Shown here: in pieces, positions 212 through 49,262 of the stretch
How positions within the stretch are numbered: position 1 is the first letter of the stretch
How the letters are laid out: every line of letters begins with the position of its first letter
Assembly (NCBI GenBank): GCA_951406725.2
Contig: OX597826.1
Coordinates: 25,110,001 to 25,174,000 of the forward strand
Length of the DNA: 64,000 bases
Source of the DNA: Octopus vulgaris
Taxonomy: Eukaryota
Direction: 5' to 3'
Notes under the pieces: model-generated
The model's input: only the letters and a program-made list of their open reading frames with translations
Database searches by the model: none
What the model was told of the DNA's origin: nothing
Position numbers and translations under genes: made by a program

Positions 212-16000
<15,789 letters not shown>

Positions 16001-31841: not shown

Positions 31842-33094
31842 CGAGGGGCGTTCAATAAGTAATGCCCCTGACCCACTTCCCATAGCAGTAGAGCAACGAC
31901 ACTTGGCACAGTTATTAGTCTTTTCTTACATAGGAACTACCCAGAGTTATGCATTTTTCCCATCGTTTGATACAGCTCTGGAGACCGTTTTTGTAGAAGA
32001 CCCCAGCTTGGTCCTCCAACCACGACGTGACTTCAGAAATCAAGGCTGCATCATCTGGTAAACGCTTTCCTTTCAAAATCAACTTCATGGCTGGGAAGAG
32101 GTGAAAATCAGAGGGTGCAAGGGGAGGAGTTCATAGCTGCACGCCTGTGCTTCTGATCTGGCGACACGCGAGTTGTGGACCGGAGCGTTGTCCTGCAGGA
32201 GGAGGATGCCTTTGCTGATCTTGCCCCGCCTCTTGATTTTGATAGCTTCTCTTAATTTCCTCAAAAGTGAAGCATAATAGGCTCCTGTAATTGTGGTACC
32301 CTTTGCCAGGAAATCTGTCATCACTACTCCGTCCTGGTCCCAGAAGACTGTGAGCATAACCTTGTCAGCGGAGGGCTGCACCCTTGCCTTCTTTGGAGGA
32401 GGTGAGTCACGGTGCTTTTACTGCATTGACTGGGCTTTGGTCTATGGATCATAGTGATGAACCCAGGTTTTATCCTGTGTGATCAGTCTTTTGAAAAATT
32501 TTGACTCATCTTCTTGGCACATCTCCAAATTCATCCTCGAGCACTCAACGCGTTCTTGCTTCTGGAAAGATGTGAGCAACCTGGAAATCCATCTGGCAGA
32601 CACCTTTTGCATATGCAAATGGTCATGAATGATAGTTTCCACAGACCCGGTACTAATCTTGACCTTATGGGCTATTTGGCGAATAGTTATGCGTTGACCT
32701 TCCAAAATGGCAGCCTCAACTTGACGGACAGACGTCTCATCAACGGCAGAAGGGGGGCGACCAGATCTGGGAGCTGTTTCCACAGAGTTCCGACTATGTT
32801 TGAATTCACAATGCCAGCGTTTTACAAGGTCATATGATGGGGCATCATCACCATAAGTTACTTTCATTTCATCAAAAGTCTCCCGTGGTGTGCGTCCTTT
32901 CAAATACAAAAACCAGATCACTGCTCGACACTCAACAGGCTCCATTTCACACTTGACTCAGTTCAAACACCTGTAAATCAGAAACCACAATAAGTTCAGA
33001 GCTGTAATTGGCCACTTAATCTATAGAGGTATAAATAAGTGCACAGCTAGATCAAACAAATGGGTCAGGGGCATTACTTATTGAACGCCCCTCG
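31842..33094 (-). mobile_element. Full-length mariner element (1253 bp, irritans-like) with inactivated transposase
   Basis: Perfect TIRs CGAGGGGCGTTCAATAAGTAATGCCCCTGACCCA with TA flanks. The transposase from 32945 reads WISRLL, ITQDKTWVHHYDP, LLQDNAPVH and LAPSDFHLFP; it has in-frame stops and the HPPYSPD segment is deleted. Confidence 0.95.
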
Positions 33095-39505: not shown

Positions 39506-40692
39506 TAGTCAGTCACTTTGAGTTAGCTTTTATCCATTTCAGTAAACACACTGAATAGATTTTCAATCTAATTAATGCCCAGAGTTTTCGTTACTGATAC
39601 CAGCTTTTCTTGTAAACTTATCGGCTTACTCAAATTCTGTTTCCATTCCTCCAGCAATCACATCAGTTTAGAGGTATTTTTTCAATGTTTCCAATTCTAA
39701 GATGAACATTATTTTTACGATAGGTCGTTCACAAAACTGCTGTATGATGGCAGAATCGTTAGAATATCTGACAAAATACCATGTGATATTTCTTTCAGCT
39801 CTTTACGTTCCGAGTTCAAATCTCATCGGAGTCAATTCTGCTTTTCATTCTTTAGGAGTCGATAAAATAAAGTATCAATCGACGGTAGCAATTAACCCCA
39901 CCCTTCAAAATTACTGGCTTTCTGCCTAAATTAGAAACCATAATTAATTATAGCACGCTGGTAATGACGCAGATGTTAAACATACAAAGCTAAATATTTT
40001 ATGAGAGCTACTTCAGGACATCACGTTTCTCGGTTCAAATTACACCGAGGATTTTTCTTTTGTTTGTTTTTTTTTACTGTTGTTTCTTCGTGAGATTGGT
40101 CTATAAAATTAGTACCAATGATATTGCGTTTTATTCAAATTTCTTCGCCACAGAAAGAAAGAAAGGTGTATATGTTGCTGTTGAGCCGATACAAGATTTA
40201 ATTTATTATTCATCTGGTAGTTTGGTACAGCAAATTATTCTTGGCAAAAATATTCTATGATTCGTTTTCAGTTCTCACTTGGAACCATTTTACTTATTAC
40301 ACTAATTAATTTGGAAAAGACAGAAATAGCAGCACGAAGACTATTTGTTTATTTATTATTTGTCTGTGTTTTATACTGATTTACCGTGCAATAATTCTAT
40401 CTTTCCGCCTTCTCCTCGTCAAAATAACCAAACACCAAGAATATACACTATTCTTGTTATCATGTCAGTTTCCCTGAGGGCGGTAGACTGACAGAATCGA
40501 TATAGCATCGGATTATATGTCTTGTGGTTATTTGCTCCGGCTCTTTACGTTCAGTGTTCAAATCCTGTTGAGGTCAACTTTGCCTTTCATGCATTCGGAG
40601 TCGATAAATAAAGTACCATTCAAGTTCTGAGATCGATGTTATCGATTAACCATCATCATCATCCTCATTTAACGTCTGTTTTCCATGCTGAC

Positions 40693-41344
40693 GGATCTTT
40701 TCCTTTTGAACGGCACACAATTTCTAGTTAACTAAACACTTTAAAACTTCGTATGCTGGTAGAATGTGTCAAAATAAAACATTTTTTTCTCTTGGCTTTC
40801 TTGAGAAAATTATAATTTGTTTGTTTAACGTAGTTTAATTTTTCGAATTTTAACCAATCCTATGCTCTCTTTTGAGCTAAAATCATTTGCTGCGTCTAAA
40901 ACTGAGACAACATCCTGTAACTAACCCTAAACCTCACCCCTAACCCTAACCCTAACCCTAAATTTCTTTTTTCTTAATTGTTAAATTAATTTAATTGTTA
41001 CGCGTGCAAAAAAAACTAAAGCAATGGAATTAAATTAATTTAACAATTGAGAAAAAAAAATAGGGTTAGGGTTAGGGTTAGAGGAGAGGTTTAGGGTTAG
41101 TTACAGGATGTTGTCTCAGTTTTAGACGCAGCAAATGATTTTAGTTGAATGGAGGTAATCGATTGGTTAAAATTGCCGAAATGCTCGGATTTTCAGACGA
41201 AATATCTTACAAACTATAGAATTTTCTCAATAAAACCAAGAGAAAATGATGTTTTATAAACACATTCTACCAGTATACGAAGTTTAAAAGTGCTTAGTTA
41301 ACTAGAAATTGTGTTGACATCTGCCGTTCAAAAGGAAAAGATCC
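40693..41344. mobile_element. Foldback MITE carrying inverted telomeric repeats, copy 1 (652 bp)
   Basis: TIR GGATCTTTTCCTTTTGAACGGCA; 8-bp TSD ATGCTGAC; (CCCTAA)n at about 40921-40961 and (TTAGGG)n at about 41061-41100. Confidence 0.93.
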
Positions 41345-42710
41345 ATGCTGACATGGGTTGGACGGCTTGACAGGGCTGGCAAGTTCTATTGTTTGTGTTG
41401 GCTTTCCTTTGATAAGCCTTCCCACTACAAGCACAAGACCTGATATTTCTTTGTGGATGGGGAGCTATTCGATTACATTGATCTCAGTATATAACTGGTA
41501 CTTATTTCATCAAAACTGAAAAGATGAAAAGCAAAGTCGACCTTGGCGGAATTTGAACTCAGAACGTAAAGACGGACGAAATGCCGCTAACCATTTTGTC
41601 CACCTTGCTAACGGTTCTGCCAGCTCACCCCACTTTGCTGACCTTAATAATGGTTTCAAATTTTGGCACAAAGCCAACAATTCCAGAGCAGGGGTTAAGT
41701 CGATTACATCGACCTTAGTGATCAACTGGTACTTATTTTATCAACTCCCAAAAGGATGAAAGACAAAGACGACCTCGATGGAACTTGAAGTCAGAACATA
41801 AAGACAGAGGAAAGGCAACTAAGTATTTTGTCCGGGGTGGTAACGGTTCTGTCAGCTCAGCCCATTTATTGTCCTTAATAAGAAATGTGTTTAGTTTAAA
41901 CACGCTAAACTAAACTCAATTATTATTAAGGGCAGCAGGCGATATTTGTGCCGGGTCTGTACGTGCCGAGGTTAACTTTGCCATTCATACTTTTGGAGTC
42001 GATAAAATAAGGTATAACTCAAGCACTGCGGTCAATGGCATCAATTAAACACCACCCAACGAAATTTGCTGGCCTTGTACCTAAATCAAAAATAGCCGTT
42101 GGGGTTTCAGGTTCAATCACATCCTACAGCACCTTGGATGCTTTCAATAGCCCCGGGCCGACCAATGCCTTGTGAGTGCATTTAGTAGATGAAAAATGTG
42201 TGGAAAGACAGCGTATGCGTGCGTCTGATGCATGCTGATGTTTTCCAAATGCATAAATATACAGAGTTACATACACATACACATGCAAATATACACACGC
42301 ACATACAAACACATGAATATGCAGAATACATACATACAAACGTACACACATACATATATATATGTATATGCACACACATACTCATACATGCATACATTCT
42401 TTCATTCATTCATACATACATACATACATACATACATACATACATACATACATACATACATACATACATACACACATGCATACAAACAAACAAAAAGGAC
42501 GCAGCTCGGAAAACGGACAGAATCAACGGCTATCGAAAAGGTTGCAAGACGCAACGAAAATTTTAGTAAAAACAAAGAAGTGAGTGGAAACTGAACCGGT
42601 GCATGTGTTAAATAATAAGGCACAAAAAGAGAATGACTCTCTCTAGACACAACAAAATATGCTTCAACACACGAACTCACATAAGGAATCTTGCAAATCA
42701 AATCCCAAAA

Positions 42711-42744
<34 letters not shown>

Positions 42745-42747
<3 letters not shown>

Positions 42748-43105
42748 AGTGGCTGTGTGGTAAAGTAGCTTTACCACATGGTTCCGGGTTCAGTCCCACT
42801 GCGCGGCACCTTGGGCAAGTGTCTTCTACCATAGCCTCGAAACGGCCAGAACCTTCTGAGTGGATTTAGTAGACGGAAACTGAAAGAAGCCCATCGTATA
42901 TATGTGTATATATCTATATGTGTGTGTGTATGTGTTTGTCCCCGCTACATCCCATGACAACCCCGTAACTTAGCAGTTCGGCAAAAGAGGCCAATAGAAT
43001 AAGTACTAGGCTGACAAAGAATAAGTCCTGGGGTTAATTTTCTCGAGTAAAGGCGATGCTCCAGCGTGGCCGCAGTCAAATGACTGAAACAGGTAAAGGA
43101 ATAAA
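42745..43105 (+). mobile_element. SINE with CR1-like tail
   Basis: Same family as 34730-35150, opposite orientation. Confidence 0.85.
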
Positions 43106-43129
43106 AATATAAGTATAATTAGACAAGTA

Positions 43130-43549
43130 GGATCTTTTCGGTTTGAACGGCAGTTTTTTCTAGCGGTGTCATATGAAATTGTCACCCATAATTATGACCC
43201 TAGAATCGATCTATTGCATTTCAATCTTTTAGGGTTAGGGTTAGGGTTAGGGGTGGGGGAAGGGTATCTTTTTTTTTCTTCACAAACGTAAATAAACCCA
43301 ATCTGTTTCTTAAACGAGGGACACATACGGTACAGAATGCTTTTTTAACTCAATAGACGTCACTGATTGGTTGAAATTGCAGAAATTGAAGAAAAAAAAA
43401 CAATAAATATCTTACAAACTATAGAATTTTCTCAATAAAGCCAAGAGAAAAAGATGTTTTATAAACACATTCTACCAGTATACGAAGTTTAAAATTTTTT
43501 AGTTACCTAGAAATTATGTTGAAAACTGCCGTTCAAACCAAAAAGATCC
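43130..43549. mobile_element. Telomeric-repeat MITE, related subfamily, copy 2 (420 bp)
   Basis: TIR GGATCTTTT(C/T)GGTTTGAACGGCAGTTTT; 8-bp TSD GACAAGTA; four TTAGGG units at about 43229-43252. Confidence 0.92.
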
Positions 43550-43746
43550 GACAAGTAACCAATATGACATATATGGAAGAGTTTACAAGGCATCAGTTAT
43601 AAGATTCATCCACGAATGTTCTTAATGGTTACAATATAATTAATATTGGTATACTCCTAGAAGAGTTAGTAGTTATAAGGAAAATCTCATAGTATTGATA
43701 ATTAATTTATATAATAAGCTGAGGTAGACTATCATGGAGAGCTAAC

Positions 43747-44348
43747 GGATCTTTTCCTTTTGAACGGCACTTTGTAACATAATTTCTAGGTAACTAAAAA
43801 GTTTTAAACTTCCTATACTGGTAGAATGTGTTTATAAAACATCATTTTCTCTTGGTTTTATTGAGAAAATTCTATAGTTTGTAAGATATTTCGTCTGAAA
43901 TTTCGAGCATTTCGGCAATTTTATCCAATCGATTACCTCCATTGAGCTAAAATCATTTGCTGCGTCTAAAACTGAGACAACATCCTGTAACTAACCCTAA
44001 ACCTAACCCTCAACCTAAATTTTTTTTTGTTAATTGTTAAATTAATTTAATTGTGTAACAATTAAATTAATTTAACAATTAAGAAAAAAAATTTAGGGTT
44101 AGGGTTAGGTTTAGGGTTAGTTACAGGATGTTGTCTCACTTTTAGACGCAGCAAATGATTTTAGCTCAAAAGAGAGCATAGGATTGGTTAAAATTCGAAA
44201 AATTAAACTACGTTAAACAAACAAATTACATACAATTTTCTCAAGAAAGCCAAGAGAAAAAATGTTTTATTTTGACATATTCTACCAGTATACGAAGTTT
44301 GAAAGTGTTTTAACTAGAAATTGTGTGCCGTTCAAAAGGAAAAGATCC
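43747..44348. mobile_element. Foldback telomeric-repeat MITE, copy 3 (602 bp), inverted relative to copy 1
   Basis: Same TIR as copy 1; 8-bp TSD GAGCTAAC; palindromic almost to the centre at about 44055. Confidence 0.93.
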
Positions 44349-44476
44349 GAGCTAACTTAATTAGCGTTGGCTCCTCGTTAATTAAACAATATATTTCATT
44401 ATGCACAAACAGAACACACGCGCACACACATATGCGTTCTCTATTATCAAAATAATTCGTTTCTGTGAATACTTAC

Positions 44477-45633: not shown

Positions 45634-48600
45634 ATATCCTTAAATCCTTAAATCCTTAAAAATGTTTTAGCCCGAAGGCCGCGGCCATGCTGGGGCACCA
45701 CCGCTGAATGAGCTACACTAATATGTGAATCCACCTCTGATACGTGGCACTTGATCAATACGGGAGTTCGATGCCGCTGCCCGCATCTGCGTCTCCTGTC
45801 GTGAGGTAGGTTCATCTGGGACCCCCGACAAGAAGAGATCCAGTTTAGTTTTAAAGAAACCCACATCCACACCATGTAAGTCTCTCAGGCATTTAGGGAG
45901 GATGTTAAAGAGCTGTGGTCCTCTGAAACCCAAGCTGTTGCAGTATCTGGACCTGTATTTTGATGGTGATGTTGGAATCTTTGGCACCATGCAGTGGCGC
46001 CCCGTTCTGCGGTTGAGGTAACTTTGAATGCCAAAGTTTGGGATAGGATTTTCCAGATGTATATCACCGCATATCTCTCCCGCCTTCGCTCTGGGGAGAA
46101 GAGGTTTAATACTTTCAGTCTTTCCCAGTAGCTGATATTTTGCATTGAGACGATCTTCTTTGTGTAGCTTCTTTGAATTGCTTCGAGTTCTGCTGTTAGT
46201 TTTATATTGTGTGGTGACCATAGTTGGGAGCAGTAGTCCAAGCGGCTGAGGACGAATGTTTTCCAGAGGACCATCAGTGTCTCCTTCTCTCTTGTTCTGA
46301 AAGTTCGGAGAATCCATCCAGCTAGCCGTCTGCATTTTATCACCAGATTAGTAATATGCACTTGGAAAGATGTCAATGCCTAGGTCTCGCACTGATTTTG
46401 ACTCAGGGATTGCAATTCTTCCTGGGCCAGTGTATCCAGTCTGCACGTCGTTTACCTTTGTGTGCCGGTAGCGCAGGGCCTGGAACTTACCTGCATTAAA
46501 CTGCATGTTGTTGTCCTCAGCCCACCTGTATATTGTATCCAACTCCTGTTGCAGATGCGCAATATTTTCAGGGTTTTGTATTGTGTGGGAGACTTTTGTG
46601 TCATCTGCATAGCTAGCAAGGGTGGCCATCGTAGCAACTGAAGGCATGTCTGAAAGGGCCACTATGAACAGCAGTGGCCCCAAGACAGTGCCCTGTGGAA
46701 CACCGCTTGTTATTTGTGTTTCCTTGGAGGTGGCTCCATTGCTCACAACTGCCTGTCTTCTGTCTTTTAGGAAGTTGTGCAGCCACTCTCCAAGTTTTCC
46801 GCCTATGCCGAGACCACGCAGTTTGTGACAGATCATACCGTGGTCGACTTTATCAAAAGCTTTTGCAAAGTAGAGATATATTACATCCACATTTGAGCCA
46901 TTTAGTAGCTGTTTTAACACCCAGTCAGGAGCTGTGTTAGGCAGCTTCTACCTGGTCGAAATCCATGCTGGGTGTCAGACAGCAAGTCATTTTCTTCAAG
47001 GAACATGATTAGTTTCTTGCGGACTATTCGTTCCATGACTTTGCTGATGTGTGAGGTCAGAGAGATAGGCCTATAATTTTTAGCATCTGCTCTGCTACCT
47101 CCCTTATGGATAGGGCATATTACCCCCTCTTTCAATTTGACTGGGAGCTTACCACTTGCAAGAAAGCTCTGAAAAAGAAGCTGTAGCGGTTTTGCAAGGG
47201 CTCGTTTGCACGATTTGAGAAGGATCGCTGGAAATCCATCAGGTCCAGCAGCTGAGTTTGTGTCAATCTCATCTATGGCTAGTGTGATATCATCATCTTC
47301 AATGTTGATGTACTCAATTTTTGCCTCTTTGGCCGCAGGTAAAGTGGCAAAGAATTCTTCTGGGTTGTTTACTTGCCTGTGTCCTAGAGGTGTAGTGAAC
47401 ACACTTTGGAATTGTTCGTTCAGTATTTCACTTATCCTCGTGGGATTTCCTGTGAGAGAGCCATCTTTTTGGAAGAGAGGTCCTATTCTCTGGTGCACTG
47501 TGGCTGTCTCTTTGGCAAACTTAAAGAAAGCTTTAGGGTTTGATTTTATATTTTCTATTACCCAAGCTTCTTTATCTGCTCTCTCCTTTTCATGGGACTG
47601 ATGCAGACTTTTCTCAATTTCCATTAGCATTCTCTCGAGCCGAGACTTCTCACCACTTTTGTGTGCTTGCTCAGGCGGTTCGCAATCCTTGTCCGTCGTC
47701 TCATAAGAATCTTCCTTTCTCTAGGGATCCTGTTTTTGTTTTGTGTGCGCTGGCCCTGCACACTGGGACATATTTGTCACATATGGCTTGTATTATGGAC
47801 ATTAAGTGTTTGTGTTTCATGTTAATGTCCGGTGTGGAGAGACATTTAGGCCAATCCTGTTTGAGGATCTCTTTCTCAATCAACTTCCAGTTTGCTTTAT
47901 GAAAGTTTAAGTTGGAGAGATGGTGGATGCTTCGTATAGGCTGTGTGTCTACGGGGGCTTTTGGTCCATACATAGACAGCTCTATTATGTTGTGATCCGA
48001 GATCATTGTCGGCATCACTTTAACATTATGGATAATATCCATATTGTTTGTGAAGCAGAGATCCAGTATATTATCTGCCCTTGTTGGTTGCAGAACTATT
48101 TGCTCCATGAAAGAGGCATTTGTGAGATGGAGCAGGGACTCTGCCTGTGCCTGCTGATGGTGTGTCATCCCTGAGAGCATCTGCCTCCCAGGCCATTCCA
48201 CATTGGGGAAGTTAAAGTCACCCATGAAGAATACACTGTTATGTTGTTCAAGGTTGGTGAGGACTTCTCCTATTTTTGTTAAGCAGTCTTCAAACATGCC
48301 TGAGTGATTTGGGGCATCTGGTGGGCGATATGTAGTGCATATGACGATATTCAGTTGTCTTATGTGTACAATTTGAGTGTCACACACTGAGTTTGAATAT
48401 GACAACAGGACCTGGGGCGTGAGGTCATCTCGGATGTACATTGCAACTCCACCATGGCTCCTCCCTTTTCTATCTGAGCGTATGACTGCATATTGCGGCA
48501 TGTGTATTTCTGCATCCCCTATACCGGGTCCAAGATACGTTTCTGTGAGTGCCATGCATATAGCTTGATTGCATGTCACAAGGTCTCTCAGGAATGAGAT

Positions 48601-49262
48601 TTTCCTTTTACAGTTGCCGCGCAGCAGCCCTCCTACGTTCAGTAGAAATATTTTTGTGGTGTGTGTGTTGGTGTCTGTGGTGGCCATCCTGCATCTGTTG
48701 GAGGTGGCCTTATGTGGTGGTAGTTCCAGCTTTGTGTTTGTAGCCAGGTCAGCTGCTGAACAATTTTTTGTGCCATGCACAAAAAAGATTGCTGTTCAGC
48801 TGCTGCCCTTCTCACATCTGGGTGAAGCTGGCCATTTGTTGGGTTACCGCGCACTACATCCGCATATCGTCTTTCAGGAGTGGTCAGTGCGCTATTTTTC
48901 CTTCTTTTATATTTTCTTTTTCCTTATCTTTTTGTTCTCCCCGAGGGAGGGATTTTTGTCCCGTGTCCGTGCGGTTTTGGTAGGGCTTCTGATGTGCAAA
49001 GCGACAGTTTGCACCTTCGACGCCGTGCCAGCAGTCCCCCTTCAGGTAGAATTTGCAGATGTTTCTGCCTTTGCCCTTATAGTTCTTGCTGGGGTTCTTT
49101 TGTTTTTTCTGAACAGTGTTTGTTTTGGTTCTAATTTTCTTGTGTTTTACCTTGTTTCCCATCAATTTTAGGGTGCTTTTCTTTTTTTGCGGCCATCGCA
49201 CCTCTTTGGTCTTCAGTTGTGTTGGGAGCTGGACATGTGCCATTGTTTCCCTTTGTTCTAGG
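45634..49262 (-). mobile_element. CR1-clade LINE, near full length (~3.6 kb), inactivated
   Basis: N-terminal CCCH zinc finger (CKFYLKGDCWHG...CRFAH); APE endonuclease (ALTETYL, YRPP, MGDFN, LDL, SDHN); RT (GPDG, YRPISL, QHGF, AFDKVDH, GVPQGTVLGP, YADD); (TTTAAGGA)n tail. Broken by frameshifts and stops; YLDF is mutated to YLYF. Confidence 0.95.

Follow-up and report, generated by a model that had tools for sequence, protein, structure and literature searches.

Short telomere-like tracts in probable non-autonomous Merlin elements of Octopus vulgaris

Within 3.7 kb of a 64,000-nucleotide stretch of the Octopus vulgaris genome (contig OX597826.1, positions 25,110,001–25,174,000; below, the window) lie three insertions, E1, E2 and E3, carrying internal tracts of TTAGGG, the telomere repeat of molluscs. 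The cluster is flanked by a gene with a myosin tail, by what remains of a mariner transposon and by a long interspersed nuclear element (LINE). The three elements have the termini GGATCTTTT..TTTGAACGGCA in common, and each is bounded by its own perfect 8-bp target-site duplication (TSD), exactly as the first-pass annotation of this DNA had it (coordinates in Table 1). Alternative duplication lengths of 2–13 bp were checked at all three, and none besides 8 fits. The (CCCTAA)n and (TTAGGG)n tracts reported there, inverted in E1 and E3, are also present; they are short, the longest perfect runs being four units (E1 left tract and E2), two units (right tracts of E1 and E3) and a single unit (E3 left tract).

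E1 and E3 are imperfect palindromes over their full length, with 79–80% identity to their own reverse complements, and the E1 hairpin has a z-score of −48. They are 87% identical to each other. E2 shares with them one outer arm, a 28-bp terminal inverted repeat (TIR) and the tract only; its outer arm is 92% identical to that of E1 over 145 bp and 85% identical to that of E3 over 207 bp. BLAST of the window yielded no family copy beyond these three.

For E3 the empty site was found in a related organism, where a 787-nt contig (runs X14 and X17, from two studies) links position 43738 directly to 44349; the flanks differ by 5–10%. The 610 bp that are skipped equal E3 (602 bp) plus one TSD (8 bp), hence E3 was inserted here with duplication of 8 bp. 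Together with the three distinct TSDs this bears out the earlier view of separate transposition events. A search for an empty site across all three elements at once was dominated by repeats and gave none among the 15 joints listed; no RNA run was among the matching ones listed, and those contigs of the relative that enter the TIRs overlap them by less than 31 nt, too short to claim presence of the elements.

The family is large. The 2.8-Gb genome contains 16,401 exact matches to the TIR (8259+8142), compared with none for the reversed control; on contig C1 the first 100 matches belong to 77 elements, and by extrapolation about 12,600 elements would have one exact TIR or more. In 20 arbitrary 10-kb stretches the family occupies 0.66% of bases, a rough value based on few events (three segments, two loci). 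Among 99 elements with facing TIRs, collected without a TSD filter, 51 have an exact 8-bp TSD and 73 have one with at most one mismatch, while any other duplication length is exact in at most three. The copies are 400–1200 bp long, non-coding, bounded by TIRs, numerous and uniform within subfamilies, as is characteristic for MITEs (miniature inverted-repeat transposable elements).

All five subfamilies share the TIR and an arm of about 200 bp. Subfamily A (400–455 bp, mean pairwise identity 94%) is the E2 type, and subfamily B (~810–865 bp) is a head-to-head palindrome of the A body; the two are related as half and palindrome, and either may have descended from the other. Subfamily C (600–650 bp) is the E1/E3 type, subfamily C2 (~760 bp) has the tract on a single arm only, and subfamily D (1.0–1.2 kb; 2107 first-look candidates in the genome) has no tract. 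Separately, at L130 (C29:21.979–21.982 Mb) a unit of 147 bp containing the family TIR is repeated in tandem, beside nested A and D copies.

Merlin transposons are defined by 5'-GG termini and TSDs of 8–9 bp (PMC8101967), and all six ends of E1, E2 and E3 start with GG. The genome was scanned for transposases with the Merlin profile PF12762, and 150 of 476 candidates were scored. Many Merlin transposases were found, several families having GG ends and 8-bp TSDs of their own; those with GGCAC..., GGTTA... and GGCGT... termini were rejected, since their ends differ from those of the E1–E3 family. A search for TIR variants produced a sister end with the same first 10 bases. It has 228 exact matches, of which one lies at 1.2 kb from a Merlin open reading frame (ORF), and this led to a single transposase clade. 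At five of the 30 best loci of this clade (L361, L370, L372, L374, L379) the MITE end and arm stand, equally oriented, on the 5' side of the ORF (P ~4e-7 at an assumed 0.005 per locus); one more, L364, has the arm at its 3' end, and nine have a GGATCTTTTC-type end without the arm. Three of five further loci that were fetched (L396–L398) also have the arm, giving a total of eight arm-bearing loci 5' of Merlin ORFs, on six contigs and in one clade. The distance from the MITE-type end to the start-codon site is 362–547 bp in the seven copies where that site was located. The arms of the transposase copies are 72–84% identical to those of the MITEs, and the L396 leader matches at 90% the centre of C2 over 80 bp and that of C over 31 bp.

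The terminal positions 1–11, compared with E1, have at most one mismatch in six of seven transposase-bearing ends (L361, L396, L398, L364, L341, L315) and two in L379, versus seven in two other Merlin families. The six ends thus conform to the rule by which Repbase relates non-autonomous elements to their parents, that is, at most one mismatch in these positions (PMC4455052). In the tree (40 rows, quick search, ten rows less than half filled and all kept), 19 end-bearing transposases and five relatives without located ends form one clade with a Shimodaira–Hasegawa-like approximate likelihood ratio (SH-aLRT) of 100, apart from other Merlin families. A 317-aa open frame, L270, for which no end was located, scores 36.2 bits with PF12762 against a cut-off of 27, and D-D-E motifs are seen both in it and in L265. 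L315, a copy with the sister TIR, has both TIRs, a TSD matching at seven of eight positions and a transposase remnant only. Because eight broken transposase copies of one clade carry the MITE end and outer arm before the ORF, we assign E1, E2 and E3, on sequence grounds, to the non-autonomous Merlin (IS1016/IS1595-type) MITEs; the opinion of the first-pass annotation that the superfamily could not be assigned is superseded.

Other Merlin loci of this genome have features of their own. A minisatellite of 114–118 bp occupies the 3' part of parent-type Merlin copies at L361/L391 (C18:64.461–64.467 Mb) and L370; in one copy it has grown to more than 5 kb, a satellite expanding inside a transposon. 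Other Merlin families form large palindromes with two inverted transposase halves (L056, L057, L064, L065; e.g. C1:98.626–98.629 Mb), and foldback formation seems to be common for Merlins here. Stop-free ORFs of 308–356 aa, for which TIRs were not located, are present at L033–L036, L270 and L368, some of them nearly identical across contigs; they may reflect recent activity or domestication. One transposase looks similar, by eye, to an Octopus protein in a published supplement. On C1, L221 (7.5 kb, with arms facing each other) turned out to consist of two separate MITEs.

In the genome, (TTAGGG)3 has 22,831 matches, overlapping ones included. The first 30 of them, covering 27 Mb of C1, represent 22 distinct sites, and with the tracts masked 15 of these lie clearly and one weakly in the family. 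Most of the short interstitial TTAGGG tracts sampled are thus borne by the family, in agreement with the earlier suggestion that it seeds interstitial telomeric sequence (ITS). Longer degenerate TTAGGG arrays that lie outside the family or barely touch it (L170, L176, L180–L183 and L186, all on C1) are possibly carried by another repeat family.

In 34 subfamily A copies chosen regardless of the tract, it consists of one to eight units with TTAG steps intermixed. It has accumulated 28 edits in 899 bases (3.1%), compared with 345 in 10,658 non-CpG bases of the body (3.2%, p=0.92), and the 60 bp next to it on either side have changed less (1.8%, p=0.018). Conservation of the tract above its neighbours, expected of a telomere-protein site and of the functional tract envisaged by the first-pass annotation, is therefore not seen in these copies. 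At least four perfect units in a row occur in only four of them. The canonical G-quadruplex (G4) motif is present in 26 of the 34 A, five of nine C and none of five D copies; E1 and E2 have it and E3 does not. Telomeric units are absent from 18 of 19 D copies, the remaining one having a single unit, and from all eight transposase leaders. Overall, 27 of the 99 elements have no unit, D being over-represented among them since it was fetched on purpose.

Two C2 copies bear on the origin of the tract. One arm of each retains a segment of 89 or 104 nt collinear with the L396 leader, and in the other arm the tract replaces this segment. As the transposase leaders are tract-free and the C2 arm keeps the leader segment, the tract-free state is, judging by these alignments, the ancestral one, and the tract occupies a junction where leader DNA was replaced. 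Insertion with a flanking deletion is the commonest pattern described for mammalian short ITS (PMC7215372), and by this analogy the tract was most likely captured during the repair of a break. The A/B and C tracts have a G-rich tail and a TTAG step in common, and there may have been one acquisition or two. A possible alternative donor is a degenerate TTAGGG-like stretch of about 40–50 bp, common to L370, L379 and L350, in the 3' part of the parent beyond the transposase.

Thus E1–E3 are very probably separate insertions of high-copy non-autonomous Merlin (IS1016-like) MITEs, likely mobilised by the transposase clade that shares their ends. The short TTAGGG tracts within them are likely to be neutral passengers, since they decay at the background rate, the leaders of the parent lack them and so does the sister subfamily D. 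The end and leader of the parent would have given rise to the MITEs by deletion and inverted duplication. The tract would have entered at the deletion junction after the MITEs arose, most likely through break repair involving telomerase or the copying of a telomeric template, in line with the models of short ITS, and would then have multiplied through transposition and slippage.

Several observations weigh against this interpretation. None of the arm-bearing transposase copies found has two intact ends together with a TSD, and each of them has a broken ORF; of the long copies that the first-pass annotation had proposed to seek, with the same TIR around a transposase ORF, only these eight broken ones with end and arm were found. 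L397 has both arms, with an eroded left terminus and no TSD, and the right arm was sought in five 3' extensions of transposase copies and found in none. The piece of L265 up to its first stop scores 26.7 bits, slightly below the Pfam cut-off of 27. The samples come mostly from the first 27–50 Mb of C1 and were partly chosen by TIR pattern. As to the tracts, the decay test on inserted copies speaks of a lack of host selection and not of a lack of effect during transposition. Among the classified copies of subfamilies A, B, C and C2, 50 of 51 retain the site YTAGGGTTR, and most A copies retain the G4 motif. The A/B and C tracts lie in non-homologous flanks, and Merlin-hit contigs of the hemichordate Ptychodera flava have a similar TTAGGGTTAGGGTTAGTTAG motif in a repeat shared among them (27 occurrences in the supplementary file of PMC8101967, ten of them examined). 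Hence a weak benefit of the tract at the level of the element may exist.

These last points are the substance of an alternative, which we regard as unlikely, that Merlin MITE lineages captured telomere repeats more than once because a telomere protein or a G-quadruplex 230–300 bp inside the ends aids movement or survival. By shielding or linking the ends, or the hairpin form, host TRF/shelterin or the quadruplex would raise the copy rate, which would suit the symmetric placement of the tracts in the palindromic subfamilies, with the C-strand reading inward, as well as the binding of some short human ITS by TRF1/2 (PMC6410037). A selfish element would then exploit shelterin and become the main builder of the short interstitial telomeric sites of this genome, the hemichordate motif being a parallel case. 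However, the conservation of the tract is not raised, its unit number is free, and subfamily D has reached high copy number without it. Moreover, TRF binding depends on the length and conservation of an ITS (PMC6410037), and few A copies have long perfect runs. The proposal of the first-pass annotation that the family uses telomere-binding proteins or G-quadruplexes is accordingly disfavoured.

Both clustering and nesting are family-wide. On C1, ten of 76 gaps between elements are below 5 kb versus 0.58 expected (P 4e-10), and neighbouring copies often come from different subfamilies. Other family DNA lies directly outside the end in four of 30 D copies (P 5e-5 at the 0.66% background, 0.003 at 2%), and family-like outer flanks are found at 21 of 276 ends, some of them redundant or generic. 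The clustering noticed by the first-pass annotation is real, but the local hopping suggested there fares worse: that the three elements derive from one donor in this way is very doubtful. E1 is 92–96% identical to seven subfamily C copies on C1 and 87% identical to E3, and E2 is of another subfamily; as E1 is nearer to copies from another chromosome than to its neighbour, a local hop from a single donor is not supported for this cluster. The strength of the clustering does suit hopping, and one neighbouring A pair on C1 with 97.5% identity, the third highest of 561 pairs, may have arisen by it, whereas the identity in two further adjacent A pairs equals the family mean of 94%. The clusters would be explained by a shared preference for targets, among them resident copies of the family, and about 30–60 triplets are expected even without clustering at 12–15 elements per Mb.

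Membership of another superfamily with 8-bp TSDs (Mutator-like or foldback elements, hAT or P; hAT and P termini are YA and CA), the Merlin link being chance nesting, is largely refuted already and scarcely credible: the long palindromic arms do resemble foldback elements, the transposase search was restricted to Merlin, and two apparent Merlin parents were false or unclear (L061, a separate Merlin set beside or in a truncated subfamily-D copy, and Merlin clade K with L039 and L153, where the juxtapositions are not repeated in other K copies), but the arm precedes ORFs belonging to a single Merlin clade at eight loci, the transposase leader has a match in the MITE centre, and the sister TIR flanks further members of that clade.

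The Merlin MITEs described here are of a known kind. The telomere-bearing elements (TBE) of Oxytricha have terminal telomere repeats, whereas here non-coding elements carry them internally, at a distance of 100–300 bp from the ends, with no sign of selection on the tract. TBEs are likewise cut-and-paste DNA transposons with host telomere repeats and high copy number, but they belong to Tc1/mariner and encode a transposase implicated in genome rearrangement (PMC4724952, PMC12242761). Published Merlin/IS1016 elements are similar in their 5'-GG termini, 8-bp TSD and TIR length (24–462 bp there), in the DDE_Tnp_IS1595 transposase, found here in the parent clade, and in internal tandem repeats, which several families there possess (PMC8101967). 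In our case, unlike those, the tandem repeat is the telomeric hexamer and the family exceeds 10,000 copies. The string "telomer" does not occur in the main text of that paper, and an octopus family is likewise missing from part 1 of 2 of its S1 Table (PMC8101967).

Our literature search found no paper on this family; Repbase and Dfam lay outside the comparison, and these or octopus repeat libraries and supplements may hold it. It is apparently an undescribed large repeat family (~0.7% of sampled DNA), tied to its transposase clade. Mammalian short ITS at double-strand breaks are each modelled as a separate repair event (PMC7215372, PMC6410037), whereas here one or two acquisitions would have been multiplied thousands of times by transposition. 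Transposition of telomeric repeats has been named as a possible ITS route (PMC6410037), and reviews list it only as such; the family offers a countable case of short ITS multiplied in this way and not made singly at breaks. TTAGGG-based telomere calls, fluorescence in situ hybridisation (FISH) signal and TRF chromatin immunoprecipitation (ChIP) in this genome will include thousands of MITE-borne sites. Sister subfamilies that share their arms but differ in having or lacking the tract constitute a natural control for tract effects.

Table 1. Features of the three elements in window coordinates.
Feature	Position	Strand	Basis
E1, palindromic non-autonomous MITE assigned to Merlin, subfamily C, 652 bp	40693..41344	+	TIRs, TSD, 79% self-palindrome, arm homologous to 5' end of Merlin transposase copies
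E1 left TSD ATGCTGAC	40685..40692; right copy 41345-41352	.	TSD comparison
E1 left TIR (~23 bp) and ~175-bp outer arm as in transposase-bearing Merlin copies	40693..40892	+	81% over 168-200 bp to L361, L370
E1 left tract (telomere-like, CCCTAA inward), 4 consecutive perfect units; canonical G4 motif on minus strand	40919..40961	+	
E1 AT-rich centre, apparently in part from 5' leader of Merlin transposase element	40962..41060	.	E1 270-300, 90% over 31 bp to L396 leader
E1 right tract (telomere-like), degenerate TTAGGG with perfect runs of up to 2 units	41061..41102	+	
E2, asymmetric MITE, subfamily A, 420 bp; 28-bp TIR and one half of palindromic subfamily B	43130..43549	+	
E2 left TSD GACAAGTA	43122..43129; right copy 43550-43557	.	
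E2 (TTAGGG)4 and G-rich tail, canonical G4 motif	43229..43265	+	
E3, palindromic MITE, subfamily C, 602 bp, opposite to E1; missing at the relative's orthologous site	43747..44348	-	
E3 left TSD GAGCTAAC; one copy skipped with E3 at the empty site	43739..43746; right copy 44349-44356	.	
E3 left degenerate CCCTAA-like tract, 1 perfect unit	43989..44018	+	
E3 right TTAGGG tract, 2+1 perfect units	44093..44122	+	

None of the 20 contig ends sampled begins or ends in a pure telomeric array; the starts of C13 and C6 hold 29 and nine CCCTAA units in 1.5 kb. The former, L415 (C13:1–1500), is the start of the contig of the window, where a CTGGC repeat precedes the 29 units, a subtelomere-like end.

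In the window, exons of a coiled-coil gene, which we take to be paramyosin-like, lie on the plus strand at 1700–14540, with Myosin_tail_1 detected on one exon frame (E 4e-14). The mariner transposase remnant (HTH_48) is at 32085–32957 and the LINE, broken, with endonuclease and reverse transcriptase domains, at 45700–49200, both on the minus strand. Immediately to the right of E3, the segment 44349–44850 is single-copy and about 95% conserved in the related organism, versus about 89% for the left flank, and may be a regulatory or exon region.

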